A stretch of 64,000 bases of DNA from an uncultured Alphaproteobacteria bacterium (GCA_902592345.1 CACJEE010000002.1:37749-101748), one strand, 5' to 3'. Shown: positions 36,149-64,000, numbered from the stretch's first letter. The notes: a model not told the origin generated them from the sequence alone. Program-made: numbers and translations.

Positions 36149-37108
36149 ATGGATTTAACTTTAGTTTATACTGTAATTGGTTTTAGTCTTGCCGCCTATT
36201 CAGTTGTGGCAAATGACTCTGTTCAAACTCTTGGTACTTTTATGGCTTCCAATCAACGCTTCAAATGGTATTGGTTGGCAACTGCTGCTTCTGCAGTTTT
36301 AGCTTTCACATTAATTTATGGATGGAATGTTAATGATGGTGATATTACTTTTGGACGTTTAAATAAAATCCCTTATCAAACAATCCAATGGTATCACGCT
36401 GGCGCTCCTTTAATACTTGTTATACTTACAAGAGTAGGAATTCCTGTCTCTACAACCTTTCTCGTACTATCTGCTTTCGCCTCTACGGTTGTTCTTGAAA
36501 AAGTTTTGATGAAATCAGTTGTTGGTTATGGTTTAGCAGCTATGGTTGCTTATCTTGTATGGATATGTGTAAGTTATTTTATTAATGAAAAATTTGATAA
36601 GGTAAATGAGAAGCACCGCAGAGCTTGGGTAATCGGACAATGGTGTACAACTGGATTTCTGTGGTACACATGGCTTAGTCACGATGTTGCCAACATTGCT
36701 GTATTTCTTCCACGTCAGTTGCCTGTCAATTTATTAATCCTATGTATTGTTTTATTAAGTGTTCTTCTTTTTTATATTTTTTGGGATCGAGGAGGACGTA
36801 TTCAAAAGATTGTCTATTCGAAAACAGGTACGCGGTACACCAGGTCTGCAACTATTATTGATTTTATTTATGCAATAATACTCCTCTACTTCAAACAATA
36901 TAATGACATTCCAATGTCAACTACTTGGGTCTTCGTCGGTTTATTATGTGGTAGAGAGTTAGCAATAGCTACAATGAATAAAGAATATAAACTTCGGTAT
37001 GTTTTCCCTTTAATTGGAAAAGATTTTTTAAAAATGATTTTTGGATTATCTGTTTCTGTTGGAATTGTTCTATCCATTCATTATATTTTTATTCCAAACG
37101 GATTTTAA
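36149..37108 (+). CDS. Divergent PiT/PHO4-like membrane transporter
   Basis: Polytopic, with two degenerate PiT signature repeats (VANDSVQTLGTF and SHDVANIAVF). ATG 36149 preferred over the TTG at 36119 used in the track. Confidence 0.5.
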   Translation: MDLTLVYTVIGFSLAAYSVVANDSVQTLGTFMASNQRFKWYWLATAASAVLAFTLIYGWNVNDGDITFGRLNKIPYQTIQWYHAGAPLILVILTRVGIPVSTTFLVLSAFASTVVLEKVLMKSVVGYGLAAMVAYLVWICVSYFINEKFDKVNEKHRRAWVIGQWCTTGFLWYTWLSHDVANIAVFLPRQLPVNLLILCIVLLSVLLFYIFWDRGGRIQKIVYSKTGTRYTRSATIIDFIYAIILLYFKQYNDIPMSTTWVFVGLLCGRELAIATMNKEYKLRYVFPLIGKDFLKMIFGLSVSVGIVLSIHYIFIPNGF

Positions 37109-37115
37109 AGAATAC

Positions 37116-37601
37116 CTACTTTTTCTTTTGTAATTCCTTTTTTAATTTAGGCCAATCATCATCACTTAGAATATAGCCAACACATTTTTTAGAACCACAT
37201 TTACAAATATGTTCTTCAAAATCACTATCAAATGGGTAGCCATAATTATAGGTTAATTCTGTATATTTTTTTATTCTCTTTATTGAGGATATCCAAATTT
37301 CATTATTTGTTATTTCAACCTCACAATTTGGATCACACGAATGATTAATGAATCGAGCATAATTACGAGCAACACCTCCATCAATGTCATATTTTTTATT
37401 TAATTCAAAAACATAAACCATGCCGTTTTTTTTATTTTTTTGTGCTTTTTTAATTTGTTTATCTGCTCTTTTATCACCTTCTTTTTTTGTTACCTTATCA
37501 CCAATATATTGAATAACTTGTTCAGCTTTTTTTATATCACGGTTCGCAAATAGCCCTGAACCGTGTAGTGATGATTTTTTTTTATACCATGATTTTTTCA
37601 T
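37116..37601 (-). CDS. SET-domain protein (putative lysine methyltransferase)
   Basis: GSGLFA, FINHSCDPNC, ELTYNY and post-SET CKCGSKKC. Confidence 0.85.
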   Translation of the reverse strand: MKKSWYKKKSSLHGSGLFANRDIKKAEQVIQYIGDKVTKKEGDKRADKQIKKAQKNKKNGMVYVFELNKKYDIDGGVARNYARFINHSCDPNCEVEITNNEIWISSIKRIKKYTELTYNYGYPFDSDFEEHICKCGSKKCVGYILSDDDWPKLKKELQKKK

Positions 37602-37650
37602 AGGGATTTCTTAAATAGATTTAATGTTAATACAAGTATTAATAATTAAA

Positions 37651-37884
37651 CTAAGCAATAAGAAAATAGTTATAATAACCAATTGCAAACAACGGTAACT
37701 GTAATCCAAAATTAGTTAATAATGCCTTATCCTTTGTAATATATCCAGCAACAGACCAACCAATAGCGCCAAGACCATGACTAAAAATATTTAATGGATA
37801 ATAATTTAAATTTGTCAGTAAAATTCCAAACAAAATTAAACCTGTGCTTAACCATTTTAATTGATTTAATGAAATAATATTCAT
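37651..37884 (-). CDS. Small (77 aa) three-TM membrane protein, unknown function
   Basis: Three hydrophobic segments. 49 nt upstream of the SET gene on the same strand. Confidence 0.5.
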   Translation of the reverse strand: MNIISLNQLKWLSTGLILFGILLTNLNYYPLNIFSHGLGAIGWSVAGYITKDKALLTNFGLQLPLFAIGYYNYFLIA

Positions 37885-38010: not shown

Positions 38011-38673
38011 ATGTTTGGATTAAAAAGTAGCTCTTTATTTAGTGATACAAAAAAACTTGAGCGAGAAATTGATGGGTTTGTTGATATTCTCTCGGAGGTT
38101 GGCTTAGTATTTAAAAATATTGTTCCAACTTATCTTAGCCATTCTGCGAACGGTAAATTTGATGAAATGGTTGAAAAAGTTAAAGAAATGGAGAGTAAAG
38201 CAGATAAAATTACCAAAGAAGTGGAACACACCTTATATGAGGAAACACTCATCCCTGATGCACGAAGTGATGTGTTACGTCTTCTCGAGCATATGGATGA
38301 ATTAATTGGTATGTACCAAGGGAATTGTTATCACTTCTCTATTCAAAAACCAAATTTTCCAAAAGAGTTTCATCAAGATCTTATCGAATTAACAGAAACA
38401 GTTGTTAATTGTGTAGAAGCTTTATGCTTAACAGTACGTTCGTTTTTCCGTGATATTAAAAGTGTGCGTGATAACGGACATAAAGTTACCTTTTATGAAA
38501 AAGAATCAGATATAAAATTTAGTGCCTTAGCACGAAGAATTTTTGATTCCGAACTTCCTTTAGATCAAAAAATGCATCTTCGATATTTTGTTGAAAAAAT
38601 TGATCGTATTTGTGATCAAGCAGAAGATATTGCTGATGAAGTTCAGATCTATGCAATTAAACGATCCGTTTAA
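38011..38673 (+). CDS. DUF47 / PhoU-like Pit accessory protein
   Basis: 220 aa helical protein of the type paired with PiT transporters. 6 nt upstream of the pit gene. Confidence 0.8.
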   Translation: MFGLKSSSLFSDTKKLEREIDGFVDILSEVGLVFKNIVPTYLSHSANGKFDEMVEKVKEMESKADKITKEVEHTLYEETLIPDARSDVLRLLEHMDELIGMYQGNCYHFSIQKPNFPKEFHQDLIELTETVVNCVEALCLTVRSFFRDIKSVRDNGHKVTFYEKESDIKFSALARRIFDSELPLDQKMHLRYFVEKIDRICDQAEDIADEVQIYAIKRSV

Positions 38674-38679
38674 TAACTA

Positions 38680-39732
38680 ATGGATATCTCCATCATTATT
38701 TTTCTCTTAGGTGGATTATTTCTTGGGTGGTCTTTGGGGGCAAATGATGCGGCAAATGTTTTTGGAACAGCAGTTGGAACACGAATGGTGCAATTTAAAA
38801 CTGCTGCTATTGTGTGTAGTATTTTTATTATACTCGGTGCTATCATTAGCGGGGCTGGAACAACTGAAACTTTAGGTAAGTTAGGTTCCATCAATGCGCT
38901 GCCTGGTGCTTTTGCTGCTTGTGTTGCTGCAGGAATATCTGTGTACATCATGACAAAAGCTGGTTTACCTGTATCCACAACTCAAGCTATTGTTGGTGCT
39001 ATTGTTGGATGGAATTTATACACGGGATCAGCAACTAATATAAAAGTTCTCATTACAATTTTAGGAACGTGGGTATTATGTCCAGTCATTGCAGGACTAA
39101 TCGCCATGGGCTTTTTTACCCTAACAAAAAATTTTATTTTAAAGAGAAAATTACATATTCTAAGACTAGATGCATATACACGAACAGCTCTTTTATTAGC
39201 AGGTGCTTTTGGTGCATACAGTTTAGGGGCGAACAATATTGCTAATGTGATGGGTGTATTTGTTCCTATATCACCGTTTACAGATATTTCCATTTCTAGT
39301 TTTTTTGTTTTTAGCTCGAAGGAGCAATTATTTTTACTTGGGGGATTAGCTATTGCGGTTGGAGTTTTTACCTATTCTAAAAAAGTTATGTTCACTGTGG
39401 GTAATGATTTATTAAAGATGTCACCTGTTGCCGCTTTTATTGTTGTTATTTCGCACTCTATAGTTTTATTTTTATTTGCCTCTCAGGGTATTAGTAATTT
39501 TTTGCAGTCAATTAATTTACCTTCTATTCCCTTGGTTCCCGTTTCAAGCTCACAGGCTGTTGTCGGTGCTGTGATTGGAATTGGTCTATTAAAAGGAGGA
39601 AAAGAAGTGCAGTGGTCTATAGCAGGGAAAATTACAATTGGTTGGTTTATACTGCCAATTATTGCAGCACTAATTTCGATTTTTTTACTGTTTATTCTTA
39701 AAAATATTTTTAACTTAAGTGTTTTTATTTAA
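38680..39732 (+). CDS. pit: Inorganic phosphate transporter, PiT family
   Basis: Canonical GANDAANVFGTAVGT and GANNIANVMG repeats, 350 aa polytopic. Confidence 0.9.
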   Translation: MDISIIIFLLGGLFLGWSLGANDAANVFGTAVGTRMVQFKTAAIVCSIFIILGAIISGAGTTETLGKLGSINALPGAFAACVAAGISVYIMTKAGLPVSTTQAIVGAIVGWNLYTGSATNIKVLITILGTWVLCPVIAGLIAMGFFTLTKNFILKRKLHILRLDAYTRTALLLAGAFGAYSLGANNIANVMGVFVPISPFTDISISSFFVFSSKEQLFLLGGLAIAVGVFTYSKKVMFTVGNDLLKMSPVAAFIVVISHSIVLFLFASQGISNFLQSINLPSIPLVPVSSSQAVVGAVIGIGLLKGGKEVQWSIAGKITIGWFILPIIAALISIFLLFILKNIFNLSVFI

Positions 39733-40252
39733 TTCTATTATAATTTAAAATAAATTTTTCCTGTTCCTCTGTTTCAATTGCACCTTTTCTTTTTGCTCTA
39801 ACTATTTCTATTGCTTTTTTATTATCTTCACCAAATTCAATCAATAGAATGGCGGCGATGGTTCCTGAGCGTCCTTTTCCACCCATACAATGAATAACTA
39901 TATTTTTTCCCTCTATTAAATCATTTTTTAATAATACTTTTGTTGTTTCCCATTTTTCATTAAATTGACGGTCGGGCGCTTTTAAATCTTCAATAGGCAT
40001 ATGTGTCCATTTTAAATTTTTAGCGTATATAGAACGAACAAAATTTTTTTTATCACACAGTTTTTCAAATTCTGAATCTTCAACTAAGCTTAAAATAGTA
40101 TTGCAGCCTAGATTATTAAAGTTATTTAAATCTTCTAAAAAAATACTTTCACTATAAGTAACTTCTGTTCCTTTTCTTCCAGGAAAACATGTAAGAAAAA
40201 TTTTTCCCTTAACATCTCTTGGTTGCACAAAGTCATACGCCAATTTATCCAT
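39725..40252 (-). CDS. Cys-based (dual-specificity/PTP-like) phosphatase
   Basis: HCX5R(S/T) loop VIHCMGGKGRSGT. 8-nt convergent overlap with pit. Confidence 0.75.
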   Translation of the reverse strand: MDKLAYDFVQPRDVKGKIFLTCFPGRKGTEVTYSESIFLEDLNNFNNLGCNTILSLVEDSEFEKLCDKKNFVRSIYAKNLKWTHMPIEDLKAPDRQFNEKWETTKVLLKNDLIEGKNIVIHCMGGKGRSGTIAAILLIEFGEDNKKAIEIVRAKRKGAIETEEQEKFILNYNRIK

Positions 40253-40272: not shown

Positions 40273-41976
40273 TTATTTAGTATCAAGAATATTGTATCGC
40301 CACGCTTGTGTTTTACGCAATACTTTTTTTGTAATAATTGTATGGGTAAGCCTCACAGCAACAGAAACATAAACTATTAACATCGCCATTGCAGCAGCTT
40401 TAGCGACTTCTCCCTGTTCATCTAAATGAATAGCAGACACAGATGCAAGAGTAGTATCATAGGAATAAAGGAAGATTACCCCGGACACGGTAGTCATCGC
40501 ATTAACAAATAAATAAATAGAAACATCAAAAATAGGTGGCAGACAAACAGGTAGGGTTACACGCCAAAACATTTTATAAATCGGAATTTTTAAAGACAAA
40601 GAAACAGATTCAAATTCTTTATCCATTTGCTTTAAAGCAGTAATCGCTGTCAAATGAGAGACTGTATAGAAATGAACAATTGTGTTTACAACCAAGATAA
40701 TCATTGTTGCATAAATAAAATTTAGAGGATTATCTTTTGCGTTAAAGAAAAATATATAAGCTAATCCTAATACCAACCCTGGTACAGCCATTGGCATAAG
40801 TGCAAAAAATTGAACTGTATTTCTATATCCTTCATTAATTCTTAATTTTTCAATTAAGTAGGAGCCAACAAAAATAATAATGGTGCCAAAAATTGCTGTA
40901 TAAAATGACAATTCAACTGAATTATAAAAAGAATCCCAGCCAAGTCCTGCTACTTGGAAGTCATAATTTTTTAACGTAAAATTTAAGTTATAAGGCCAAT
41001 ATTTAACTATTGCTCCAAATTGTGCCATCCCTATCATTAATATGATGATTAATGCTAAGGCTGAACAGAATCCAAGCATGATCATATCAACCTTGAAGTG
41101 TTTCTTCGGTTTGAAAACAACTGATCTAGCCGTGAGTAAAGAGATTTGTTTTTTTCTTGAATAACGATCAATAAAAAAAGCTATCATTGCAGGAACTAAT
41201 AGTACCATAGAGATGACTGCGCCCATTTGAAAATTTTGCATCCCAACAACTTCTTTATAAATATCAGTTGCTAAAACATTATAGTTTCCTCCTATAACTT
41301 TAGGAACACCAAAGTCGGTAAACACTTGAGTAAAAATGACAAAGGCCGTACTAATGATTCCGTATCTTGCCCCCGGAATAGTGATGGTAAAAAATGCTCT
41401 AAGCTTAGATGTTTTTAAAACATCTGCCGCTTCATACAAACGTGAATCAGATAATGATAAAGAAGTTGTCAAAATAATAAGTGCATGAGGAAAAGTCCAA
41501 TAGACAGAAGCCATAATGATACCAATAGGTCCATAAATTGATTTTCCTAACAACACTTCTTTTAAAACACCTTGGTTACCAAACCAATACACAAGAGCTA
41601 TCGCAGCAAGAATGGATGGACTTAATAAAGGAATTAAAGCTACTAATTTAAAAAAACCTTTAAAAGGCATGCAGGTTCTTGTTAGGGCATAAGAAAATAA
41701 AAATGCCAAGACAACAACAATTACAGTGGAACAGATAGCGACAAATAAACTATTATAAAGTGATTGAAATAATGCGGGTTCTTGAAGATACAAGTTATAG
41801 TTTGTAAGACCAATGAATTCACCATCTTTATTTTGTAAACTTTTTGAAATTAAAGCCCCTAGAGGTAAAACTAAAAATAATAAAAAAAGAATAATATAGG
41901 AAATGAGCATAAATAGCCCAACTCGATCACTTGAATCTTTACCTCTACGTATATCTGCAAATTTGAATAAACTCAT
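40273..41976 (-). CDS. Fused two-domain ABC permease, Fe(III)/2-aminoethylphosphonate type
   Basis: 567 aa, about 12 TM, two BPD-type halves. Operon with the ATPase. Confidence 0.8.
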   Translation of the reverse strand: MSLFKFADIRRGKDSSDRVGLFMLISYIILFLLFLVLPLGALISKSLQNKDGEFIGLTNYNLYLQEPALFQSLYNSLFVAICSTVIVVVLAFLFSYALTRTCMPFKGFFKLVALIPLLSPSILAAIALVYWFGNQGVLKEVLLGKSIYGPIGIIMASVYWTFPHALIILTTSLSLSDSRLYEAADVLKTSKLRAFFTITIPGARYGIISTAFVIFTQVFTDFGVPKVIGGNYNVLATDIYKEVVGMQNFQMGAVISMVLLVPAMIAFFIDRYSRKKQISLLTARSVVFKPKKHFKVDMIMLGFCSALALIIILMIGMAQFGAIVKYWPYNLNFTLKNYDFQVAGLGWDSFYNSVELSFYTAIFGTIIIFVGSYLIEKLRINEGYRNTVQFFALMPMAVPGLVLGLAYIFFFNAKDNPLNFIYATMIILVVNTIVHFYTVSHLTAITALKQMDKEFESVSLSLKIPIYKMFWRVTLPVCLPPIFDVSIYLFVNAMTTVSGVIFLYSYDTTLASVSAIHLDEQGEVAKAAAMAMLIVYVSVAVRLTHTIITKKVLRKTQAWRYNILDTK

Positions 41977-41984
41977 ATACCTAA

Positions 41985-43058
41985 TTATGTTGAATAAATA
42001 CGAGCATCTTCTCTAGAAAAATATAGATTCATTTCTTTATTCAAATCTAATTCAATTTTTCTTGCAGTAGCACTTGGGACATCAACAATAATTAATTCAT
42101 CTGTAATATTAATTGCTTCAAAATACACTCGTTGAAAAGATCCTAAAAACTCAACTTCTTTAATTGTTCCTGGAATCATATTGTCATCCTGATTGCTTTG
42201 CTTAAACTGAATGTCCTCAGGTCTAATTGCTAATTGAACAGAATCATTTGCTTTAAAATTTCCTATCTCACAATTTATCTCTATTTGATTACATTTTACT
42301 TTGTTTGAACTATTAATAATCGCAGGGATAAAATTCATACTGCCAATAAAAGAAGCTATAAAAGGAGAATTTGCTTTTGTATAAATTTCACTTGGTGTTC
42401 CTGATTGAATTATTTCCCCATCTTTCATTACGAAGATTCTATCCGCCATTGTTTGTGCTTCTTCTTGATCATGGGTAACCATAATAGTTGTTACACCAAG
42501 CTTTCTTTGCAAATCTCGTATTTGTTTTCTTAAAAAAACCCTAACCTTTGCATCCAAGGCAGATAAAGGTTCATCTAATAATAACAATCCTGGAGAGGTT
42601 GCTAAAGCTCTAGCTAAGGCGACACGTTGTTGCTCACCACCAGATAGCTGACTTGGATATTTTAATGCATGTTCAGTTAAATTAACTAAACTTAATAATT
42701 CATCTACTCTTTTTTTTATATCTGCTTTTTTCCATTTATTATTTATCAAACCATAAGATATATTTGAAAAGACAGACAGATTTGGAAACAAGGCATAAGA
42801 CTGAAAGACGATTCCAAAATCTCTATTTGATGGAGGCTCATTTGATATATTAATATTTTTTTGAATAACAGATCCTGTACTTTGAGTTTCTAATCCGGCT
42901 ATACATCTTAGTAAAGTTGTTTTGCCACAACCTGAAGGACCAAGAAAGCAAACAAATTCACCTTCTTGAATATTTATATCAATATTTTTTATTGCTTCAA
43001 AATTTCCGAATGATTTTGATAAATCTTTAACTTCAAGATATGTGTTATTATTCTGCAT
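41985..43058 (-). CDS. ABC transporter ATP-binding protein (PotA/FbpC/PhnT-like)
   Basis: GPSGCGKTT, LSGGEQQR, LLLDEP, C-terminal TOBE-like domain. Confidence 0.9.
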   Translation of the reverse strand: MQNNNTYLEVKDLSKSFGNFEAIKNIDINIQEGEFVCFLGPSGCGKTTLLRCIAGLETQSTGSVIQKNINISNEPPSNRDFGIVFQSYALFPNLSVFSNISYGLINNKWKKADIKKRVDELLSLVNLTEHALKYPSQLSGGEQQRVALARALATSPGLLLLDEPLSALDAKVRVFLRKQIRDLQRKLGVTTIMVTHDQEEAQTMADRIFVMKDGEIIQSGTPSEIYTKANSPFIASFIGSMNFIPAIINSSNKVKCNQIEINCEIGNFKANDSVQLAIRPEDIQFKQSNQDDNMIPGTIKEVEFLGSFQRVYFEAINITDELIIVDVPSATARKIELDLNKEMNLYFSREDARIYST

Positions 43059-43139
43059 AAAATCAAATAAAGTTTAAGTAAATTTATCATAGTTATAACT
43101 TGTTATACGCAAAATTATATTGAAATTTACTAATAACTG

Positions 43140-43167
43140 TTAACAAATTTTTAATATATGCTTAACA
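43140..43167 (+). promoter_or_regulatory. Candidate Pho box: three hexamers at 11-bp phasing, followed by TTGACA
   Basis: TTAACA-N5-TTAATA-N5-TTAACA, then TTGACA at 43171-43176, in the divergent spacer of the AEP-type transporter. Confidence 0.35.
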
Positions 43168-43220
43168 TGATTGACATATTTATAATTAATAAATGTAAAA
43201 TTTTAACGGGAGGTAATTAT

Positions 43221-44264
43221 ATGTTCTTAATTAAAAAAACATTTAAAACGTTAAGTACTGTTTTAATTTTTTTATCTTTATCAACATTTAGTCAGTTATC
43301 AAATGCTGGTGAGCTATTGGTTTACTCAAGTACTGATGCAGATAATTTAAAACATTACATGGATGAATTTCAAAAACAACATCCTGATATTAAAGTAAAT
43401 GTTGTGCGTGAATCAACAGGTACAATGGCTGCTAAAATGATGGCAGAAAAAGATAATCCTCAAGCAGACTTTTTATTTGAAATGGCAGCTACTGTTGCTC
43501 TCAATATGGAAGCAGAAGGTATGTTTGTAGAATATACGCCAAAGGGAATGGATGCGATTGATCAACGATATGTTGATAACACTGATCCTGTTACCTGGGT
43601 TGGAAACTATGGTTGGGCTGGTTGCATTTGTTGGAATAGAATAGAAGCAGAAAAACATGGTCTACCAAAACCTACAAGTTGGGCTGAGTTAACAAATCCA
43701 ATTTATAAAGGTCACATTTCTATGCCTAATCCTGCATCATCTGGTACAGGCTTTTTGGATGCCTCTAGTTGGATTCAAATATGGGGTGAAGATAAAGCAT
43801 GGGAATACATGGATGCTCTTCATGAAAATATAGGTGTATATACTCACTCTGGTTCTAAGCCTTGTAAACAAGCTGGTTCAGGTGAATTTGCCATTGGTAT
43901 TTCTTGGCCAGGTAGAGCGATTAAAGTTATCAAAGCTGGTGCACCAATTGATATGATCATACCTGATGAAGGAATAGGTTGGGAAATGCAAGTGGTAGCA
44001 ATAATGGAAGGCACAGATAATCTGGAAGATGCTAAAACATTAATGGATTGGACTTTAGGTGATGGTATGAAATTGTTTGGCGAAAGACAATCAATTATTG
44101 CTGACCCATCAAAAGTAACGAAAGATCCAGAACTGCCAGATTTTTATGATGAAGTACAAGCTAAGTTAATTAATAATGACTTTGTTTGGGCTGCTGCAAA
44201 TAAAGATCGTATCGTTGCTGAATGGAAAAAAAGATACGACGGAAAAACTGAGCCGAAAAGTTAA
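43221..44264 (+). CDS. Periplasmic substrate-binding protein, 2-aminoethylphosphonate/Fe(III) family
   Basis: Start moved to ATG 43221, preceded by GGGAGG, which gives signal peptide MFLIKKTFKTLSTVLIFLSLSTFSQLSNA. Also LVYSSTDAD and NPASSGTGF motifs. Confidence 0.8.
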   Translation: MFLIKKTFKTLSTVLIFLSLSTFSQLSNAGELLVYSSTDADNLKHYMDEFQKQHPDIKVNVVRESTGTMAAKMMAEKDNPQADFLFEMAATVALNMEAEGMFVEYTPKGMDAIDQRYVDNTDPVTWVGNYGWAGCICWNRIEAEKHGLPKPTSWAELTNPIYKGHISMPNPASSGTGFLDASSWIQIWGEDKAWEYMDALHENIGVYTHSGSKPCKQAGSGEFAIGISWPGRAIKVIKAGAPIDMIIPDEGIGWEMQVVAIMEGTDNLEDAKTLMDWTLGDGMKLFGERQSIIADPSKVTKDPELPDFYDEVQAKLINNDFVWAAANKDRIVAEWKKRYDGKTEPKS

Positions 44265-44287: not shown

Positions 44288-44314
44288 GGGGATGTTTACA
44301 TCCCCATTTTTTTT
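44288..44314 (+). terminator. Rho-independent terminator after the SBP gene
   Basis: GGGGATG-TTTA-CATCCCC followed by A+T8. Confidence 0.8.
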
Positions 44315-45169: not shown

Positions 45170-45727
45170 CTAAGAATTTGCTTGGAACGAATTTTCTACA
45201 TACTTTCGAAAATGCTCAACTGAAGGTGTTTTTTTATTTAATATTTTTGCCTGATCATCAAGGCGTCTCATTTCCACCGCTTCTTTCATTTGTGGTTTAT
45301 TAATAAATTCTTCCGCTTCTTGTTTAGAAAAAATACCACCTTGCACTTTTAAAGATATTTTTGATGCTCCTGATAATTCATCATAATATCCGTCTTCAAC
45401 TGCTGCAAGATATCGCTTTGATGCAACGTGTGCTCTAATCGGGAGTGTTACCTCTTCCCCAAAATATTTTGATAAGTAATCCGCTCCTAAATCTTCATGA
45501 ACACCATCTTTTCCTTGGTGAATGGGATCATTATCTTCATATAAAAGATGACCAATATCATGAAGCAAAGCTGCTGTTATAAAAGCATCTGATTTACCAT
45601 GTTGCTCTGCTAATTCCGCGCATTGAAGGGCGTGCTCTAATTGTGTTACAGCCTCATTGCCGTATTGAATATCGGAACCTTTTTTTTCTAATAATTCAAG
45701 TAAGTAGTTAACAATGTTATCTGACAT
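45170..45727 (-). CDS. phnZ: HD-domain diiron oxygenase, PhnZ-like
   Basis: 185 aa. YGNEAVTQLEHALQCA...LLHDIGH...HVASKRYL closely parallels the PhnZ sequence as recalled (YIGEAINQLEHSLQCA...LLHDLGH...HVAAKRYL). Confidence 0.72.
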   Translation of the reverse strand: MSDNIVNYLLELLEKKGSDIQYGNEAVTQLEHALQCAELAEQHGKSDAFITAALLHDIGHLLYEDNDPIHQGKDGVHEDLGADYLSKYFGEEVTLPIRAHVASKRYLAAVEDGYYDELSGASKISLKVQGGIFSKQEAEEFINKPQMKEAVEMRRLDDQAKILNKKTPSVEHFRKYVENSFQANS

Positions 45728-47665: not shown

Positions 47666-47727
47666 ATATTATATAAATAATCTTTATACTTTTATAAAAA
47701 AATCTAAGAGCTATTGTGCGTTTTTAG

Positions 47728-47753
47728 TAGTTTTATTTAATAGTTTTATTTAA
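47728..47753. repeat. Perfect tandem duplication of 13 bp (tagttttatttaa x2)
   Basis: Read directly in the 119-bp proV-proX spacer. Confidence 0.9.
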
Positions 47754-48781: not shown

Positions 48782-48786
48782 ACAAT

Positions 48787-55862: not shown

Positions 55863-55893
55863 AAATAAAACAGCGGCTTTTATAAAGCCGCTG
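55863..55893 (-). terminator. Strong hairpin + U-tract between the SBP gene and the MetE-like gene
   Basis: Minus strand: CAGCGGCTTT-ATA-AAAGCCGCTG followed by TTTTATTT. Confidence 0.8.
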
Positions 55894-55924: not shown

Positions 55925-57178
55925 TTATAAAAGATCGTTTATTTCTTCCATCATCTCTTCTTGAAGATCGCCCATATCATCAGCACTACCAGTAGCAATT
56001 TCCTCAGTGTAATCATAGATTACTTGAGTGATTGCTAGTCCGTTTTCACCAGGATATGCAAACCAATCTGCTAAGAGTGGAAGTTGATCAACTGCAGTAA
56101 GTTTATTTGGATTTGCACTATAGAAATCACCTAATAAATCATTAGCTGCTTTGTTTGGTGGAACATAACCAGTAGTTTCAGCAACTAATGCTGCGCCAAT
56201 ACCTGAAGTAATAAACTTCAAGAATGTCCAAGCCGCGTCTACTCTTGCAGGATCATCAGATGTAGAAGTTAGCATTGCTGCATTTCCACCTGCTGGTAAT
56301 CTTGCTGGAGTTCCATTATTTACACCTGCCATTCCAGGGAATGGAGCTGTCTTAAGGACGAAATCTGCTTTTGCTGCATTTACTGAACCTAAACTTGAAG
56401 TTGACCAGAACATCATACCAATAGTGCCTGCATTAAATGCAGCTTGACCATCAGCAATTGAATAGTTAGGCATATTACATCCGCTCATAATATCATGCAT
56501 TTGTTGTAAAGTTGCTAAACCAGCATCTCCGCCTAAGTTAACTTTTCCATCTTCAACAATTTTAACATTTTGAGTATGCATTAATGCTTGGTGGAACCAG
56601 TTACCTGTAATGTTCCAACCGAAATATAAAGTTCCACTTCCAGCTGCTTCTAATTTTCCACAAGCATCAATAACTTCATCCCAGTTAGTTGGAATGCTAT
56701 CTATGCCTGCTGCAGCTAATAAATCCATGTTATAGTATCCTACAGGAGTTGATACAGAAAATGGTAAACCATAAACCTCTCCTCCAAATGTTGAAAGACT
56801 TAACATTGCAGAATGGTAACCGTCTTTTTCAAAATCAGCTTCTTTTGCAATGAATGGTTCTAAAGATTTTGCAATACCTTTATCTACTAGAGGAGCTTGT
56901 CTGTTAAGACCCTGCATTGTAACATCAGGTAGATTACCAGAAGTTGCTTCTCTTAAAATTGTAGCAGTTGCATCTTCATAGTTTTCGTAAGTTGCTCTAA
57001 ACTTTACTTGAATATCTGGATGTGCTTTTTCAAACTCTGGCATAATAGCTTGATAAGTAACATCAAATAAACCTGAGTAAGGATAAGCTACTTCTATTTC
57101 TATAGACTTCGCTGAATTAACTGAACCATAAAAACCAAAAGCTAATATGGCTGCTAATCCTGTAATTAATTTTTTCAT
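55925..57178 (-). CDS. Family-1 (CUT1, UgpB/sugar-type) ABC substrate-binding protein
   Basis: Signal peptide MKKLITGLAAILAFGFYGSVNSA, 417 aa, strong GGAGG RBS. Confidence 0.8.
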   Translation of the reverse strand: MKKLITGLAAILAFGFYGSVNSAKSIEIEVAYPYSGLFDVTYQAIMPEFEKAHPDIQVKFRATYENYEDATATILREATSGNLPDVTMQGLNRQAPLVDKGIAKSLEPFIAKEADFEKDGYHSAMLSLSTFGGEVYGLPFSVSTPVGYYNMDLLAAAGIDSIPTNWDEVIDACGKLEAAGSGTLYFGWNITGNWFHQALMHTQNVKIVEDGKVNLGGDAGLATLQQMHDIMSGCNMPNYSIADGQAAFNAGTIGMMFWSTSSLGSVNAAKADFVLKTAPFPGMAGVNNGTPARLPAGGNAAMLTSTSDDPARVDAAWTFLKFITSGIGAALVAETTGYVPPNKAANDLLGDFYSANPNKLTAVDQLPLLADWFAYPGENGLAITQVIYDYTEEIATGSADDMGDLQEEMMEEINDLL

Positions 57179-57318: not shown

Positions 57319-58758
57319 TTACCAAGGTAGGGAGAAAGTCTTCACATTAGTAAAGCTCTTCATCGCCTCAATAACACCCTCTTTGTATCCCAATCCCGAG
57401 TCTTTAATTCCCCCAAAAGGAGACATTTCAATTCTATATCCAGGTACTTCCCAAATATTGACAGTTCCAACATTTAAGTTTTGAATATATTTTTTTGCTC
57501 TCATAAAATTATTAGTGCACACGCCTGAAGATAATCCAAAAGCAGTTGAATTTGAGATCTTGATGACAGATTCATCATCATTGGGAACGCGTATAATTGG
57601 AATAACAGGTCCAAAAGTTTCTTCCAATACTAATTCACTTTTAGGATCAACATTATCAATTACTATAGGAGGCAATAACGCCCCTTTTCTTCCAGGATGA
57701 TATAAAATTTTCGCACCATCTGCTTCTGCCATAGAAACTCTTTTATCAAATAGTTCAGCTGCTTGAGCATTAACAACGGTACCTAAATCAGTTTCCATGC
57801 TCATTGGATCTCCAAACTTAATTTTTTTAGCTCTTTCCAAAGCCATTTCAACAAACTGATCAGCAATTTTTTCTTGAACAAGAATTCTTTTAACTGCAGT
57901 ACAGCGTTGTCCTGAATTTTTTGTTGCACCAGTTACTGCTAATTCAACAGCTTTCTTTAAATCATCTGAATCTAAATCATTTAAAACAATTAGGGGATCA
58001 TTTCCGCCAAGTTCAAGAACAGTTCTTTTGTATCCTGCCTGTTCAGCAATTAGTTTTCCAACACCAACACTTCCCGTAAAAGTAATAAGATCAATATTGG
58101 GATTTTTTATCATTTCTGAACCGATATCTTGTGGCCATCCTGTAACAACAGAAAACATTTCTGGTGGTAGACCAGCTTCATACAAAACATCCGCAAGAAC
58201 CATTGCTGTTAATGGAGTTAACTCTGTCTGTTTGCAAACTGTACAATTATTCGTTGCAATAGAAGGTGCAATTTTGTGAGCCACCATATTTAAAGGGTGA
58301 TTAAATGGTGTTATTGCCGAAATAGCTGTTAATGGTTCTCTTATTGTAAATATCTTTCTAGCTTTACCGTGTGGAGTTAAATCACATGAAAAAATTTCTC
58401 CATCATCATATATACACAATTGTGCTGTTAAAGAAAAAACATCAAATGCTCTGCCGACTTCATACAATGAGTCTTGTTTTGAAATTCCAAGTTCTAAGGT
58501 AATAATATCAGAAATCTCTTCTTTTCTCTTTACAAGTACTTCAGCTGCAGTTTGAAGTATTTTTTGTCTTTCATATCGTGTAAGCTTTGATTGATAATTT
58601 GCTGCAATTTCAAGGGCCTGTCTTGCATGTTCAGCATTTCCTGCAGGAACCGTACCAATGACTTCACCCGTAAAAGGATACTCAACATCAATTGTTTTTT
58701 CAAAAGTTACTTTTTTGCCAGCAATTCGCATAGCTTCATTAATCATTTTCTTTTCCAT
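57319..58758 (-). CDS. phnY: Aldehyde dehydrogenase, phosphonoacetaldehyde dehydrogenase-like
   Basis: ALDH motifs ELGGNDP and catalytic Cys in GQRCTA. TAATG overlap with phnA. Confidence 0.8.
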
Positions 58759-59999
58759 TACAGAGCTCCATTAATTGCATAGTAGAATGCATCATAATTA
58801 TATAACTGTTTTTCATTATTGTAATTTTGTATTTTTAGATTTGATATAAAAGGCACTTCTCGCTCATGCAAACCACCATGAGAACGTAAAGGTTCATTTA
58901 ATCCAGAAAGATTATGTTTATCTTCCGATGATCCAATGGTCATAAATTCTGAGGACATACATATTATATCACCCATTCGATCAGGTGGTAGATTGTATGT
59001 ATTGCAACCTTCGTCTTTGGTTAACACTACCTCTATATCCTTAATTTCTTTAATTGATTTTATAACGTCATTAACTTTAGTTTTATCTTCAAGATAAATT
59101 GTTGCAAATGAACCTAATGATCCATGATGAACAACATAAGGATCAGTTATTGGTAAAATAACTTTTACTACATTTGGTTCAAATTTTTTATCCAGATAGT
59201 CTTGTAAAAAAATTGCATTGGGTGAACCATCGTCTTTTGATTTAGGTTTCATACCATGATCAGCCGTAATAATTATTGATACATCACCCTTATTTAAAAG
59301 GCCAATATATTTATCAAACATAGCATAAAACTTATTAGCCACTTCATTTCCTGGTGCATACTTATGTTGAATATAATCTGTTGTAGATAAGTACATTATA
59401 TTTGGTTTAAATTCCTCAAGTAGTTTTACTCCAGCTGCCATGACAAATTCGGAAAGACCTTGAGAGTATACTTCCGGTACAGGCATTCCTAACCATTCAT
59501 TAACATTATCAATACCATTATGTTCTTTTGTTGCCTGATCAGATTTTTCCGCCGAAAAACATATTGCTCGATTATCATCAAATCCTAAACCATTTCCCAA
59601 AAGAGTTCTAAGTTTATCTTTTGCAGTAACAAGAGCAATCTTTGATCCAGAATTATAAAATTTTTCAAATATTGTTGGCGCACGCATATATTTTGGATCA
59701 TTCATCATTACTTCTTCCCCTGTTTCAGGAGTGTAAAAGAAATTACCACATATGCCGTGAACAGAGCTAGGTTGCCCTGTTACAATTGATATATTATTTG
59801 GATTTGTAAAACTTGGGATAGCACTATGAACAAGTAAACTTTGTCCATTAGAAATTAATGCATCAATATTAGGTGTAAGATTTAGTTTTGATGCCTCTTC
59901 AAGATACTCTTTTTGGCTTCCATCAAGACAAATAACTATAGCTGTCTTAGAAAATGTGCTTGGATATTCTCTGTTATTAATTACTAAATTTTCAGACAC
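58758..59999 (-). CDS. phnA: Phosphonoacetate hydrolase
   Basis: Alkaline-phosphatase superfamily. Long collinear identity to Pseudomonas PhnA as recalled: [59 protein letters not shown]. Confidence 0.92.
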
Positions 60000-60152: not shown

Positions 60153-60160
60153 GGGGGGGG
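60153..60160 (+). promoter_or_regulatory. G8 homopolymer forming the Shine-Dalgarno region of the CUT1 ATPase gene
   Basis: aaGGGGGGGGtcaaATG, 4 nt before the start at 60165. Confidence 0.85.
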
Positions 60161-60164: not shown

Positions 60165-61298
60165 ATGGGCACAATATCACTTAAAAATATTTCAAAATCA
60201 TTTGGATCTACCCAGGTATTAAAAGATCTAAACGTAGATATAATAGAAGGTGAATTTTTAACATTAGTTGGTCCATCTGGTTGTGGCAAATCTACCTTAC
60301 TTCGAATTATAGCAGGTCTTGAGCAACAAACTTCTGGTGATGTTTTAATTGATAATAAAAATGTAAACAGAATTAGAGCTAGTGAAAGAGACCTAGCAAT
60401 GGTGTTTCAGTCTTATGCTCTGTATCCTCATCTCACAGTAAGAAGAAATTTAGAAACCCCTCTTAGACTTAGAGATTATAGTACATTTGAAAGATTACCT
60501 TTAATTGGAAATTTGTCTCCAAATAAGAAACAAAAAACAGAATCTATAAATCAATTAGTCAGTAAAACTTCTGAGACACTTAAAATCTCTGAGCTACTTG
60601 ATAGAAAGCCAGGTCAACTATCTGGTGGTCAAAGACAGAGAGTAGCTCTTGGTAGAGCAATGGTGAGAGAGCCTGTTGCATTTTTGATGGATGAGCCTCT
60701 GTCAAATTTAGATGCGGCACTTAGAGTTCATATGAGATCAGAGTTATCAGAGCTTCACAATTCTCTTAAAACTACATTTGTTTATGTAACACATGATCAA
60801 GCTGAAGCATTAACAATGTCTTCTCGTATGGCTGTTATGATTGATGGAAATTTATTACAGCTTGATACCCCTCAAGAGGTATATGATAACCCTTCATCGC
60901 TAAGTGTGGCTCAATTTGTAGGAAGTCCTAAAATTAATATTTTTAAAGGTTCATCAGATTCAAATGGAACTGTAAGCCTACTAAATCTCACCTTAAAAAG
61001 AAAAAGTTCAGAATCAAATCTAGAGCTAAATATTGGTATTAGACCTGAACATTTAGAAATTACAAATCAAAGTGATGAAAATACTTTTAGTGCAACAGTT
61101 TCTTATAGAGAGAATTTAGGGTCAGATATTTTCTTTCATGTAAATACAGAAGATGGAATGAATAGAATAATTGTTAGAGGTATACCGCAATTAACACATG
61201 AGATTTCTAGTGGTTCAAAAGTAAACATTAGAAGAGTTTCTAATAAAGCTTTATTATTTAATAAAGAAGGAAAAAGGGTTCAATTTAATAATGCATAA
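60165..61298 (+). CDS. CUT1 ABC ATPase (UgpC/MalK-like)
   Basis: GPSGCGKST, LSGGQRQR, FLMDEP, C-terminal TOBE-like domain. Confidence 0.88.
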   Translation: MGTISLKNISKSFGSTQVLKDLNVDIIEGEFLTLVGPSGCGKSTLLRIIAGLEQQTSGDVLIDNKNVNRIRASERDLAMVFQSYALYPHLTVRRNLETPLRLRDYSTFERLPLIGNLSPNKKQKTESINQLVSKTSETLKISELLDRKPGQLSGGQRQRVALGRAMVREPVAFLMDEPLSNLDAALRVHMRSELSELHNSLKTTFVYVTHDQAEALTMSSRMAVMIDGNLLQLDTPQEVYDNPSSLSVAQFVGSPKINIFKGSSDSNGTVSLLNLTLKRKSSESNLELNIGIRPEHLEITNQSDENTFSATVSYRENLGSDIFFHVNTEDGMNRIIVRGIPQLTHEISSGSKVNIRRVSNKALLFNKEGKRVQFNNA

Positions 61299-62247
61299 TT
61301 CTAAAGCACATATTTGGTTTATTGCGCCTGCAATAATATTAATGATTATTATATTAATTTTTCCTTTATTTCTTGCAGGTGGAATTTCTTTTACTGATTA
61401 TAATTTAGGTAATAAATCTCTTGAATGGATAGGACTTGAAAATTATGAAAAAATGTTTTCAAGAAAAACATATGTAAAAATGATTTGGGCTACGGCAACT
61501 TATGTAATTGTTGTAGTTCCTATCTCCGTTGTACTTGGTTTGTGTGCTGCTATGCTCTTAAATTCACTTAGGTTTGGAGCTGATATTTATAAAACAATTT
61601 TCTTTCTTCCTGTTATGGCGACTCTTCTTGCTATGGCCATTGCATGGGAATTCACTCTTCACCCAACACTTGGTATAGTAAATAGTTTTTTAGCTAATGG
61701 TTGCGGAGGTGTAAGAGAATTTATTCTTGGTTTTCATTGGTTACCATGGGTTGACTCACAACAAAGCTGGTATCACGTAGCATGTGCAAATAATATGGAT
61801 TTTCCTTATTGGCTGAAGCAAAAAAATACAGCAATTTGGACAATATGTTTTATAGGAATTTGGCAAGCATTTGGTTTTAATATGGTTTTATATTTAGCAG
61901 GCCTTACAGGTATACCTCGAGAATTATATCACGCAGCAGAAATGGATGGTGCTAAATCAACCTGGGAACAATTTAAACTTGTAACTTGGCCAATGCTTGG
62001 ACCCACAACTTTGTTTGTAGTAACAATTACAACAATTAGAACATTTCAAGTTTTTGATACAATTGAAATACTTACTAAGGGTGGCCCATCTAAAACTACC
62101 TACGTTATGATGTATGCAATTTTTGAAAAAGCTATCCAACAAAACTTAACGAGTATAGGAGCGGCTATTACTGTTGTCTTTATTGGTTTCATATTGATAT
62201 TAACTTTTTTCCAGAGATATATCATTGAGAAGAGGGTTCATTATTAA
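61291..62247 (+). CDS. CUT1 ABC permease (UgpA-like)
   Basis: 6 TM, EAA loop AAEMDGAKSTWEQFKLVTWPML. Confidence 0.82.
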   Translation: MHNSKAHIWFIAPAIILMIIILIFPLFLAGGISFTDYNLGNKSLEWIGLENYEKMFSRKTYVKMIWATATYVIVVVPISVVLGLCAAMLLNSLRFGADIYKTIFFLPVMATLLAMAIAWEFTLHPTLGIVNSFLANGCGGVREFILGFHWLPWVDSQQSWYHVACANNMDFPYWLKQKNTAIWTICFIGIWQAFGFNMVLYLAGLTGIPRELYHAAEMDGAKSTWEQFKLVTWPMLGPTTLFVVTITTIRTFQVFDTIEILTKGGPSKTTYVMMYAIFEKAIQQNLTSIGAAITVVFIGFILILTFFQRYIIEKRVHY

Positions 62248-63140
62248 TGCAAGCTAAACAATATATTGGTGAAAGTTGGAAACATGGCATTTTAATAATT
62301 GGAGCAATCCTTGTTTTACTTCCATTTTATATGATGGTTTCAATGTCACTAAAATCTCAACAAGAGATTCAATCAATTTCTGGAGGTTTAATAGGAGCGC
62401 AAGAAGTTCAAACATTTCCAGTTTGTGTCAAAACTGGTTATTCCGAAGAAACATGTACGACAAAGCCTTATATTTATAATTACTGGTTTGCTTTTGAAAA
62501 AGCCCCTATTCCTAGATACTTAATGAATGGAGTTATAGTAACTTTATCAATTTTTATAATTCAAGTTCTTGTCGCCTTACCTTGTGCTTATGCGCTTGCC
62601 AAACTTCGGTTTTATGGACGGGAATTTGTATTTTCTATGGTATTATTTTGTCTTCTAATACCAGTGCACGGCATTGCACTTCCTCTTTATGTAATGCTAG
62701 CCCAGGCCGGGCTCGTTGATACCTATTCCGCCTTAATACTCCCCTGGACAATATCTGTATTTGGCATTTTTCTGATGCGGCAATTTTTTATGACAGTTCC
62801 AGATGAATTAATTGACGCCGCCAGAATGGACGGCATGGGAGAATATTCTATAGTTTGGAAAGTAATGTTGCCAACTGCAATACCTGCCTTGCTTGCCTTT
62901 GCAATATTCTCAGTTGTAGCCCATTGGAATGATTATTTCTGGCCACGTATGGTTATAACTGGCAATAGAGATCTATTTACTCCGCCTCTTGGAATTAGAG
63001 AATTTAGAGGTGGAATAGATAGTGATGAATTTGGACCAATGATGGCATCAATTGTTACTGTCACAGTTCCTTTAATTGTTGCGTTCATAATTGCACAAAA
63101 AAGATTTATTGAAGGAATTACGCTAACAGGGATGAAGTAA
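62247..63140 (+). CDS. CUT1 ABC permease (UgpE-like)
   Basis: 6 TM, EAA loop AARMDGMGEYSIVWKVMLP. Confidence 0.82.
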   Translation: MQAKQYIGESWKHGILIIGAILVLLPFYMMVSMSLKSQQEIQSISGGLIGAQEVQTFPVCVKTGYSEETCTTKPYIYNYWFAFEKAPIPRYLMNGVIVTLSIFIIQVLVALPCAYALAKLRFYGREFVFSMVLFCLLIPVHGIALPLYVMLAQAGLVDTYSALILPWTISVFGIFLMRQFFMTVPDELIDAARMDGMGEYSIVWKVMLPTAIPALLAFAIFSVVAHWNDYFWPRMVITGNRDLFTPPLGIREFRGGIDSDEFGPMMASIVTVTVPLIVAFIIAQKRFIEGITLTGMK

Positions 63141-63163
63141 AATAGTTAAGTCATTCATATTGC

Positions 63164-64000
63164 ATGCCTGACTATTTTTTATTTTTACTTTTATTAATTG
63201 CAGCTTTATCTCATGCGCTCTGTCATAGTATTCTTAAATACAATAAAAATCCTCTAGGAATTTTAGGTATAACATCTATTTTTGAGATAATTATTTTTAC
63301 CCCTCTTGTATTAACAGTTCCTTTTCCAACACCTTATATTTGGATATTAATTATAACATCTGCTCTGCTACATGGTTTTTATAGATTGCTCGTTATCTTT
63401 TCATATAATTATGGGGACCTGTCTTTTATCTATCCTATCGCAAGAGGAAGCTCATCTTTATTGCTTGCAATAATAAGTTTAATTTATCTAACTGATAAAA
63501 TTTCTTTATGGGGATTTATTGCAATCATGATCGTATGTATGGGTTTATTTTTAATTTCTTACTCCGATAGATTAAAATTTAATTATTCTGCTTTTGGTTT
63601 AGGTGTTTTAACAGCTATTATGATAACGACTTATACGTTAGTTGATGGAATTGGTGTTAGACACTCCTCAAACCCCTACAGCTTTTTATATTGGATGCTT
63701 TTATTAAACGGTACTCCAGCACTTATTGCTTCTTTCTTTTTTAAAAATAATGGTCTTCGAATAGTAAATAAAAATCTGGTTTTAACAGGGGTTGCTTTTG
63801 GCATTCTTGCTCCGTTAGCCTATGGATTAGCTGTTTGGTGTATGCAATTTTTGCCAATTGCCTACGTCTCTTCGATACGGGAAATCAGCATCATATTTGC
63901 CGCTCTGATTGGTTTAATTCTATTGAAGGAAAAAACAGCTTCTAAAAGAATAATACCCTCGATATTTGTGGTTATAGGAATATCCATTCTCTACTTTCAA
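63164..64000 (+). CDS. EamA/DMT-family transporter (paralog 2, 3' end cut by window)
   Basis: Hand-translated ATG at 63164: MPDYFLFLLLLIAALSHALCHSILK... open for 279 codons to the window end. Collinear with 44318..45160. Confidence 0.75.
   Translation, partial: MPDYFLFLLLLIAALSHALCHSILKYNKNPLGILGITSIFEIIIFTPLVLTVPFPTPYIWILIITSALLHGFYRLLVIFSYNYGDLSFIYPIARGSSSLLLAIISLIYLTDKISLWGFIAIMIVCMGLFLISYSDRLKFNYSAFGLGVLTAIMITTYTLVDGIGVRHSSNPYSFLYWMLLLNGTPALIASFFFKNNGLRIVNKNLVLTGVAFGILAPLAYGLAVWCMQFLPIAYVSSIREISIIFAALIGLILLKEKTASKRIIPSIFVVIGISILYFQ

Follow-up and report, generated by a model that had tools for sequence, protein, structure and literature searches.

Phosphonates are put at between about one fifth and one quarter of the phosphorus found in marine dissolved organic matter of high molecular weight (10.1101/2020.11.04.368217), and SAR11 bacteria, the most abundant oligotrophic bacterioplankton, at ~30% of the cells in marine surface waters (PMC8918994). 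Pelagibacterales are already known to carry phnA, phnW, phnY and phnZ and are the source of 45% of marine phnZ sequences (PMC9381506). The AepXVW importer of 2-aminoethylphosphonate (AEP) was characterised by Murphy et al.; aepX expression was largely independent of phosphate, and cells growing on AEP as their source of nitrogen released phosphate (PMC8316502). Alcohol dehydrogenases (ADHs) of the PhpC type, encoded in degradative clusters with phnY-phnA (or phnX) and usually without phnW, oxidise 2-hydroxyethylphosphonate (HEP) to phosphonoacetaldehyde (PAA) (Piazza et al. 2026, PMC13576164), and tmpAB, for the cleavage of trimethyl-AEP, is given as a two-gene operon in a 2023 review (PMC10574752). 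The present analysis concerns a phosphonate region, positions 36,149 to 64,000, of a 64,000-nucleotide (nt) stretch of DNA from an uncultured Alphaproteobacteria bacterium (GCA_902592345.1, CACJEE010000002.1:37749-101748); this whole stretch is hereafter called the window.

The general kind of locus is already known, and earlier studies had characterised AepXVW, TmoXWV and PhpC-type HEP dehydrogenases individually. What is new here is the module map, the HEP route in SAR11 with a dedicated importer and a MetE-like partner, the SAR11 PhnZ as an orphan without a hydroxylase, and the recurrent phosphonate linkage of a cupin. The region is probably a modular SAR11 (Pelagibacterales) phosphonate-utilisation locus built from separately inherited units. 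The substrate-specific phosphonate genes of SAR11 form a kit of interchangeable modules, which accounts for strain-level differences in the phosphonates that can be used.

Modular composition of the locus

Every open reading frame (ORF) of at least 80 amino acids (aa) from 36.1 kb to the window end was scanned against the Pfam and NCBIfam profiles. Each gene class named in an initial annotation of this DNA was recovered at the place assigned to it, including three ATP-binding cassette (ABC) importers and two DMT paralogs (44318 and 63164). The features are listed below with strand, scores and, where relevant, family cut-offs; SBP denotes a substrate-binding protein.

36119-37108, plus: divergent PiT-like membrane protein (PHO4 22.5 bits, below the 33.7 cut-off)
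37116-37601, minus: SET-domain protein, 161 aa (PF00856, 83 bits)
38011-39732, plus: PhoU_div (DUF47) regulator and PiT-family permease (PF01865 77 bits, PF01384 194 bits)
39725-40252, minus: Cys-based (CX5R) phosphatase of the dual-specificity/protein-tyrosine type (PTP-SAK 61 bits; HCMGGKGRS motif)
40273-41976, minus: PhnU2, permease (763 bits; NCBIfam equivalog cut-off 593)
41985-43058, minus: PhnT2, ATPase (488 bits; cut-off 458)
43158-44264, plus: PhnS2 / AepX, SBP (408 bits; cut-off 393)
44318-45160, plus: DMT/EamA paralog 1, phn_DUF6 type (TIGR03340 152 bits, below cut-off)
45170-45727, minus: PhnZ/TmpB-type HD-domain (MIOX-like) C-P oxygenase (TIGR03276 206.9 bits, just under 214.6)
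45887-46651, plus: generic classical short-chain dehydrogenase/reductase (SDR), first gene of its cassette (adh_short_C2 215 bits)
46655-50775, plus: TmoXWV-like ABC importer of the betaine/trimethylamine N-oxide (TMAO) type, comprising a ProV-like ATPase, an OpuAC-type SBP (47785-48732) and a fused permease
50788-51894, plus: PhnW, 2-aminoethylphosphonate:pyruvate transaminase (NF010006 521 bits; cut-off 296)
51891-52529, plus: AllA-fold cupin (Ureidogly_lyase match), overlapping phnW by 4 nt
52534-53640, minus: class I S-adenosylmethionine-methyltransferase-fold (MTase-like) protein, 368 aa, last gene of the phnA operon (no Pfam or NCBIfam match)
53642-54754, minus: PhpC-type group III (Fe/Zn) alcohol dehydrogenase, Fe-ADH (TIGR03405, the phosphonate-associated iron-ADH subfamily, 366 bits, cut-off 424; next family 160)
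54759-55838, minus: single-barrel MetE-like Zn alkyltransferase, 359 aa (Meth_synt_2 117 bits; 3rpd, E 7.5e-46)
55925-57178, minus: UgpB-like (CUT1) SBP (SBP_bac_1/8; UgpB only 62 bits against 411)
57319-58758, minus: PhnY, phosphonoacetaldehyde dehydrogenase (792 bits; cut-off 636)
58758-59999, minus: PhnA, phosphonoacetate hydrolase (468 bits; cut-off 408)
60165-63140, plus: UgpC/A/E-like ATPase and two permeases, divergent from phnA
63164-64000, plus: DMT/EamA paralog 2, running off the window end (EamA 56 bits; TIGR03340 116 bits)

Relatives of the MTase-like protein, taken as an anchor, were found in 118 species-level genomes; 80 loci, almost all from SAR11 single-cell genomes, were kept, and all window proteins were mapped onto them (loci carry L numbers below). 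The common order is DMT / ugpE-ugpA-ugpC / phnA-phnY-ugpB-like-MetE-like-Fe-ADH-MTase-like / cupin-phnW / phnZ-Cys-phosphatase / PiT-PhoU_div / SET / PiT-like. Its core, as seen across about 100 SAR11 single-cell genomes and conserved in order in about 70, consists of PhoU_div-PiT, Cys-phosphatase-phnZ, phnW-cupin and MTase-like-phnY-phnA. The HEP block (ugpB-like, MetE-like and Fe-ADH genes) occurs in 55 of 67 loci; of its genes, two loci hold the Fe-ADH only, and in ten phnY abuts the MTase-like gene. The two remaining importer cassettes are rare: aepXVW with DMT paralog 1 lies between phnZ and the phosphatase gene in 2/65 loci and was also found in L241; the SDR and TmoXWV-like cassette lies between phnZ and phnW in 1/66, a second genome having been found through other anchors. 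The full combination of modules in the window was not seen in any other genome retrieved, so the window is the richest mosaic seen and not a conserved 28-kb block.

These counts do not bear out the coordinated, co-conserved island for which the initial annotation had argued: three parts vary independently, the HEP module occurs by itself in another SAR11 lineage, and synteny across SAR11 genomes is that of a mosaic in which two importer cassettes are rare insertions. The presence/absence polymorphism among close relatives that a mobile island should display was found, both in the module counts and in PiT/PhoU_div, which in SAR11 occurs mainly with the phn core. No integrase or transposase domain was found in the domain scans of ORFs of at least 80 aa from 32.8 to 64 kb, and no Rfam family, tRNA included, reached threshold anywhere in the 64-kb window. 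The G+C fraction is 0.319 in the phosphonate region and 0.287 in the flank, without a compositional break. Gaps between genes are mostly below 160 bp, and the genes lie in blocks of shared orientation.

At the left end, the PhoU_div gene precedes a solid PiT gene (38680-39732). Of the two PiT systems claimed at the outset this one stands, with 194 bits on PHO4; the other (36119-37108) scores 22.5 against a cut-off of 33.7, and its resemblance to the solid PiT, at 25% identity, is confined to the N-terminal 110 aa. Copies of it that are 86-91% identical are found in the SAR11 loci extending that far. Thirty-six SAR11 loci with PiT were found; 31 also carry the phn core, only L192-L194 are clearly without it, and the other two are short or carry aepXVW in its place. 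Given the phn core in 31/36, the left part counts as a piece of the variable unit. Outside SAR11, the PhoU_div-PiT pair adjoins MetE-like, phnW or aepXVW genes. The pair would move the phosphate freed from phosphonates. The SET gene is kept beside PhoU_div at the left flank of SAR11 loci with 77-91% identity.

Predicted import and cleavage of aminophosphonates

As shown by family membership, 40273-44264 is predicted to encode the AepXVW (PhnS2T2U2) importer of AEP; the AepX candidate also carries a match to pfam13343 (SBP_bac_6), the AepX-defining domain (PMC8316502). On the same basis PhnW is assigned the conversion of AEP to PAA, PhnY that of PAA to phosphonoacetate, and PhnA the release of acetate and phosphate from phosphonoacetate. 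The complete PhnW-PhnY-PhnA route first proposed for the region is upheld, with all three enzymes above their equivalog thresholds and a PhnZ-type oxygenase in addition. All six proteins of the PhnWAY and AepXVW system exceed their cut-offs, and the clustering of their genes resembles that in Rhodobacterales and Sinorhizobium (PMC8316502); the present locus differs in that phnW and phnY-phnA (the latter two overlapping by 1 nt) belong to separate operons, aepXVW is a rare insertion in this SAR11 lineage, and a LysR regulator is absent. DMT paralog 1, which shares 38% identity with paralog 2 (both of the phn_DUF6 type), accompanies aepXVW across loci.

The HD oxygenase aligns over nearly its full length with TmpB (6npa, 120 bits) and PhnZ (4mlm, 117 bits), from which it is equidistant, and its histidine/aspartate motifs are identical to theirs; these we take to include the di-iron ligand positions of the PhnZ and TmpB structures. 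On the TmpB and PhnZ1 models it scores 161-162 bits against 300. By family membership it can be expected to cleave 1-hydroxyalkylphosphonates oxidatively. The likeness to the PhnY*/PhnZ, TmpA/TmpB and GmPhnY*/PhnZ1 pairs ends with the oxygenase, which here has no 2-oxoglutarate-dependent hydroxylase partner and is followed by the gene of the Cys-phosphatase, found directly downstream of phnZ in 63/65 loci. No such hydroxylase occurs among the ORFs of at least 80 aa scanned from 32.8 to 64 kb, and a tblastn search with TmpA was negative across the whole window and all SAR11 loci retrieved, the rest of the genome (where a PhyH-type PhnY* might lie) being outside this search. PhnZ, having no hydroxylase partner, would use phosphonates that were hydroxylated before uptake.

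The SBP of the TmoXWV-like importer is ~45% identical to Ruegeria pomeroyi TmoX (4xz6, E 7e-66). It keeps the Glu and four positions of the aromatic box, among them the equivalents of W55, W102, E131 and W177, whereas three pocket residues are changed (F106>G, F220>W, W222>Y; residues as listed in PMC8918994). The fused-permease ABC layout is also that of the TmoXWV systems of SAR11 and roseobacters (PMC8918994), from which this variant, seen in only about three genomes, differs by its placement between the SDR gene and phnW and not with tdm; no TMAO demethylase gene lies beside it. The SDR gene occurs solely together with TmoXWV-like genes (L067/L163, L085/L165), and the two would bring in a methylammonium-type compound. 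The SDR was also considered as the 1-hydroxy-2-aminoethylphosphonate (HAEP) racemase PbfF, which was ruled out, PbfF being a pfam02826 protein. Within the TmoX-like SBP gene, at 48162-48194, metatranscriptome contigs of all four runs diverge from the window sequence at the same two points, a sign that natural populations contain either a variable segment here or a related paralog.

The 4-nt overlap of the cupin gene with phnW suggests translational coupling. The AlphaFold2 model of the cupin (predicted local distance difference test, pLDDT, 82.5) finds AllA (2bdr/1xsq) as its best Foldseek matches, with E 1e-8 and template-modelling scores up to 0.73, and the AllA core H-P-x-G-x-Q and W-H is kept in the profile alignment. 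It shares with AllA ureidoglycolate lyase (PF04115) the cupin fold and this core, but is ~50 residues longer at the N-terminus, only 15-18% identical, and scores 34 bits against an equivalog cut-off of 230; moreover, phnW and phnZ surround it and no purine or allantoin genes lie nearby. A search of 50%-identity cluster representatives returned 690 clusters of relatives, and a genome scan with a 10-sequence cupin alignment gave 48 loci (L113-L160), mostly non-SAR11, about a quarter of which have clear phosphonate genes within 8 kb. In seven Rhodobacterales/Rhizobiales genomes (L136:5233-8609 of Leisingera daeponensis, L123, L128, L138, L141, L145 and L148) the cupin, 50-57% identical to that of the window, comes third, on the same strand, in a tmpA-tmpB-cupin operon that lies behind a gene of the LysR family; the L. 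daeponensis TmpA (600 bits) and TmpB (362 bits) are both above their equivalog cut-offs. Elsewhere it occurs with phnW, with or without phnY/phnA (L113, L115, L146), or with aepXVW (L132). In L159 its neighbours are phnZ, aepX and a TmpA-like gene, in L126 a HAD hydrolase gene lies on one side and that of a DAO-type oxidase on the other, and in L122 and L160 it precedes a dehydrogenase of pfam02826, the family of PbfF.

The common thread of these contexts is 2-amino(alkyl)ethylphosphonates and their 1-hydroxy forms, and it is on this ground that the cupin is proposed, with low confidence, to be an AllA-like enzyme that uses such compounds as a lyase or isomerase. The phnW-coupled enzyme would be a cofactor-light lyase or isomerase of 1-hydroxy-2-amino(alkyl)ethylphosphonates, in a role like that of PbfA or PbfF. 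The idea that the cupin stands in for the missing hydroxylase was weakened by the coexistence of the roseobacter cupin with TmpA. A literature search for a published link between PF04115-type proteins and phnZ or phnW returned nothing relevant.

A probable 2-hydroxyethylphosphonate module

The Fe-ADH shares an operon with phnA-phnY in a unit without phnW, in agreement with the published description of PhpC-type enzymes (PMC13576164), and is probably a HEP dehydrogenase forming PAA, to judge from its family and gene neighbourhood. Like the dedicated HEP clusters (PMC13576164), the unit combines a group III ADH with phnY-phnA and a transporter. A second SAR11 lineage (~70% identity), found by a search with an alignment of MetE-like proteins, holds exactly this unit by itself, in the order ugpE-ugpA-ugpC / phnA-phnY-ugpB-like-MetE-like-Fe-ADH (L281-L295; 13 full loci and two fragments), and no phnW, cupin, phnZ or MTase-like gene lies within 9 kb of it. 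The present unit is different in its additional UgpB-like ABC importer and MetE-like gene, neither term occurring in the main text of PMC13576164, in an Fe-ADH below the TIGR03405 cut-off, and in its host, SAR11 not being mentioned in that paper.

The MetE-like protein has the C-terminal catalytic barrel of MetE and of single-barrel 'core MetE' proteins, with the zinc site His-x-Cys, Glu and Cys; its own site (H236-x-C238, E276/D277, C335) is invariant. Unlike MetE, it is without the N-terminal folate barrel, its best methionine-synthase score is 199 against 392, and its gene is tied to an ABC importer and phnY/phnA. The ugpC/A/E-like genes are always accompanied by the UgpB-like SBP and MetE-like genes, and the five-gene cassette that they form recurs at 53-70% identity in Hyphomicrobiaceae, Methyloligellaceae and several Gammaproteobacteria. 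It stands with PhoU_div-PiT and phnY/phnA in L313 and L237, in the latter with a gene for a Zn-ADH N-terminal domain in place of the Fe-ADH, and with aepXVW in L320. The MetE-like gene also lies divergent from PhoU_div-PiT in Nitrospira (there beside phnW), Acidiferrobacterales and Chromatiales genomes. These recurrent contexts outside SAR11 show the UgpB-like transporter and the MetE-like enzyme to be conserved together, in association with PAA-processing genes.

Most simply, the cargo of the UgpB-like importer would be a HEP derivative, which the zinc transferase would turn into HEP. In such a scheme a HEP conjugate would be brought in by the importer and unmasked by the Zn-dependent MetE-like transferase, possibly by transfer of a methyl or other alkyl group to homocysteine or another thiol; the Fe-ADH would then convert HEP into PAA, and the minus-strand operon would, together with the divergent ugpCAE genes, make up a self-contained HEP module. 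Two settings of the MetE-like gene are recorded beside this scheme. In Acidiferrobacterales (L197:3037-11868) the MetE-like/PhoU_div-PiT trio has on one side a fusion of a homocysteine-S-methyltransferase with a class I methyltransferase and on the other a DAO-GcvT (dimethylglycine-dehydrogenase-like) protein, and in Nitrospira (L200:3701-10638) the same trio is followed by an ORF of similar size; both contexts would link the trio to methyl-group metabolism.

The six enzymes first listed as having no described role thus need to be divided: the statement no longer applies to the Fe-ADH, for which a PhpC-type HEP role has been published (PMC13576164), and stands for the cupin and the MetE-like gene. 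The accompanying proposal, a wider range of substrates converging on PAA, is documented for the Fe-ADH class (PMC13576164) and plausible for the cupin and the MetE-like gene, given their conservation across orders and classes. The cupin and the UgpB-like/MetE-like cassette stand out as two credible leads to new biochemistry. It is proposed, tentatively and as a serious possibility only, that they are two undescribed parts of phosphonate catabolism: a companion cupin of aminophosphonate pathways that needs neither pyridoxal phosphate nor nicotinamide adenine dinucleotide, and a UgpB-like importer with a MetE-like transferase that unmasks conjugated or methylated HEP. If this is true, the depth of the UgpB-like SBP in ocean metatranscriptomes, the highest in the locus, would point to an abundant marine phosphonate species yet to be named. 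The substrates of both could reveal which phosphonates circulate in seawater, and both leads are conserved, expressed, small soluble proteins suited to direct biochemistry.

For the MTase-like protein, the AlphaFold2 model is of moderate quality (pLDDT 75.5) and gives 247 Foldseek matches at E<=1e-3, the best being histamine N-methyltransferase (HNMT, E 8e-9); its glycine-rich motif I, FDAGMGDG, is invariant. At least seven other SAR11 genomes have a 72%-identical gene at the end of a metY-like/esterase/MTase operon, which is placed among core genes, between rplM-rpsI and ctaA, so that clustering alone does not tie the gene to phosphonates. An unrelated role for the unassigned enzymes, named beforehand as a sign against the island, is in this way partly indicated, for the MTase-like gene only. 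Its position in the phnA operon and a 42%-identical homolog in Methyloligellaceae (L284), on the same strand ~1.1 kb upstream of the Ugp-like/MetE-like cassette, still provide a weak link to phosphonates. The esterase of the metY context gave no functional clue, as it matches only generic carboxylesterases. In L073-L080 (e.g. L075:7842-11110) the three genes of the metY-like/esterase/MTase-like unit share 83-95% identity between genomes of other SAR11 lineages, against only 65-72% for the flanking core genes hom, asd, rpsI, rplM, ctaA and plsX, a contrast that hints at recent exchange of the unit between lineages.

Expression, alternative readings and flanking genes

Expression was assessed from contigs of four marine metatranscriptomes matching at 90% identity or more. 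They cover every gene of the region, and single contigs span the phnW/cupin and ugpB-like/MetE-like junctions. Depth, a poor measure of expression to which DNA carry-over may contribute, is highest on the three SBP genes (ugpB-like 90-1000, TmoX-like 40-240, aepX 22-54). Each of these genes is followed by a G+C-rich stem-loop of about -14 to -16 kcal/mol (44288-44305 after aepX, 48754-48771 after the TmoX-like gene, 55871-55893 after the UgpB-like gene), which fits differential transcript abundance within operons; together with the top depth of the same genes, it suggests attenuation inside operons. The region comprises five or more separate transcription units, and k-mers shared among the intergenic regions amount to AT-rich noise. 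Co-regulation by phosphate, expected of the island, found no support, as no enrichment of the E. coli-type Pho box was seen and aepX expression is largely phosphate-independent in PMC8316502.

Several observations weigh against the modular phosphonate reading. The HD oxygenase and the Fe-ADH both fall short of their curated family cut-offs (206.9 against 214.6, and 366 against 424), and the Pho-box consensus CTGTCAT-N4-CTGTCAT, with up to three mismatches, gave 8 matches where 5 were expected, none of them in a promoter region. No clear phosphonate gene lies within 8 kb in 35 of the 48 cupin loci; one cupin clade (Sneathiella) adjoins peptidase M20 genes, and the other non-phosphonate loci are heterogeneous. 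Many MetE-like genes of 52-55% identity had no phosphonate neighbours in the searches made, and some lie near genes resembling dimethylglycine dehydrogenase (DMGDH) or betaine-homocysteine methyltransferase (BHMT), so that a broader methyl-transfer role is possible; to these is added the metY-operon copy of the MTase-like gene.

Part of this evidence would suit a locus that serves mainly for nitrogen, carbon or methyl groups. Aminophosphonates would then be mineralised whatever the phosphate supply, with PiT as the exit for excess phosphate, and the methyl groups collected by the MetE-like and MTase-like enzymes would go into methionine in the sulfur- and methyl-dependent SAR11 cell. The phosphate-independent aepX and the export of phosphate on AEP (PMC8316502) agree with such a role, as do the presence of PiT, not Pst, here and in other orders and classes, the DMGDH-like and BHMT-like genes by MetE-like/PiT in L197 and L200, and the want of an E. 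coli-type Pho box. Phosphate is, however, the defining product of PhnA and PhnZ, HEP contains no nitrogen, and earlier studies to which PMC3448164 refers had found phosphonate traits of SAR11 to be enriched where phosphate is low. Taken as one account, it is unlikely, while still a contender of some weight. A rather unlikely view, but one that deserves attention, holds that the MTase-like, SET, Cys-phosphatase, SDR and possibly cupin genes are unrelated neighbours packed in by genome streamlining. Tiny intergenic spaces do prevail throughout SAR11, the MTase-like gene has its copy in the core-genome metY-esterase operon, and cupin relatives at 50-57% identity are often found in non-phosphonate contexts; against this, the linkage of the cupin to tmpAB, phnZ, phnW and aepXVW recurs in independent lineages, phnW and the cupin gene overlap and are co-transcribed on a junction-spanning contig, the phosphatase follows phnZ almost throughout, and the MTase-like homolog of L284 shares a strand with the Ugp-like/MetE-like cassette.

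The opposite view, that all 28 kb form a single co-inherited, co-regulated phosphorus-starvation island with the six extra enzymes in one system, is quite improbable. The independent variation of the cassettes, a combination repeated in no other retrieved genome, the HEP module standing alone, the MTase-like gene in a metY operon among core genes, and five or more transcription units in which no shared Pho-box-like motif was found outweigh the tight packing in shared orientation blocks, the core order kept in about 70 genomes and the representation of all genes in metatranscriptome contigs. A sulfonate (isethionate/sulfoacetaldehyde) function of the HEP-type module can draw on SafD, which scores 332 bits on PhnY, and SarD, with 124 bits on the Fe-ADH; PhnY reaches 792 bits on its own equivalog, PhnA is above its cut-off, and the phosphonate-specific model scores three times SarD on the Fe-ADH. 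The sulfonate pathway was rejected on these family scores and is hardly credible. The modular phosphonate-utilisation locus remains the preferred reading.

Three further features lie in the flanks or between the listed genes.

2279-3367: recF (Pfam)
4511-5905: dnaA (Pfam)
37651-37884, minus: predicted hydrophobic membrane ORF of 77 aa, inside an apparent 409-bp gap before PhoU_div

The 77-aa ORF and the SET-domain gene (37116-37601) were absent from the initial annotation, whose starting point, 36149, is the first ATG of the ORF 36119-37108. A related contig (L242) has a 75-aa DUF6552 gene at the position equivalent to the 77-aa ORF, a match of position and not of compared sequence. Directly upstream of the phosphonate region, at 32860-36069, lie znuA (divergent), znuC, znuB and a Fur-family regulator (probably Zur), a position also kept by these zinc uptake genes in L165, a related genome. 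Metal dependence, likely on zinc, is a property of PhnA, of the Fe-ADH class and of the MetE-like enzyme.

In the first 32 kb of the window, where the domain scan was limited to the ten largest ORFs, these are housekeeping genes: recF, dnaA, coaBC, fabF, pnp, infB, nusA, lnt, miaB and murJ. One ORF (3371-4486) lies between recF and dnaA. Examination of the stretch 2279-6378 revealed a 470-bp gap after dnaA, and the sign of the GC skew flips near 6 kb; this is probably the replication origin, with the phosphonate region beginning only ~30 kb away. In the window, which has ~30% G+C, a run of eight G at 60153-60160 forms the ribosome-binding region of the ugpC-like gene, and its counterpart in 53 related genomes consists of 4 to 7 G.

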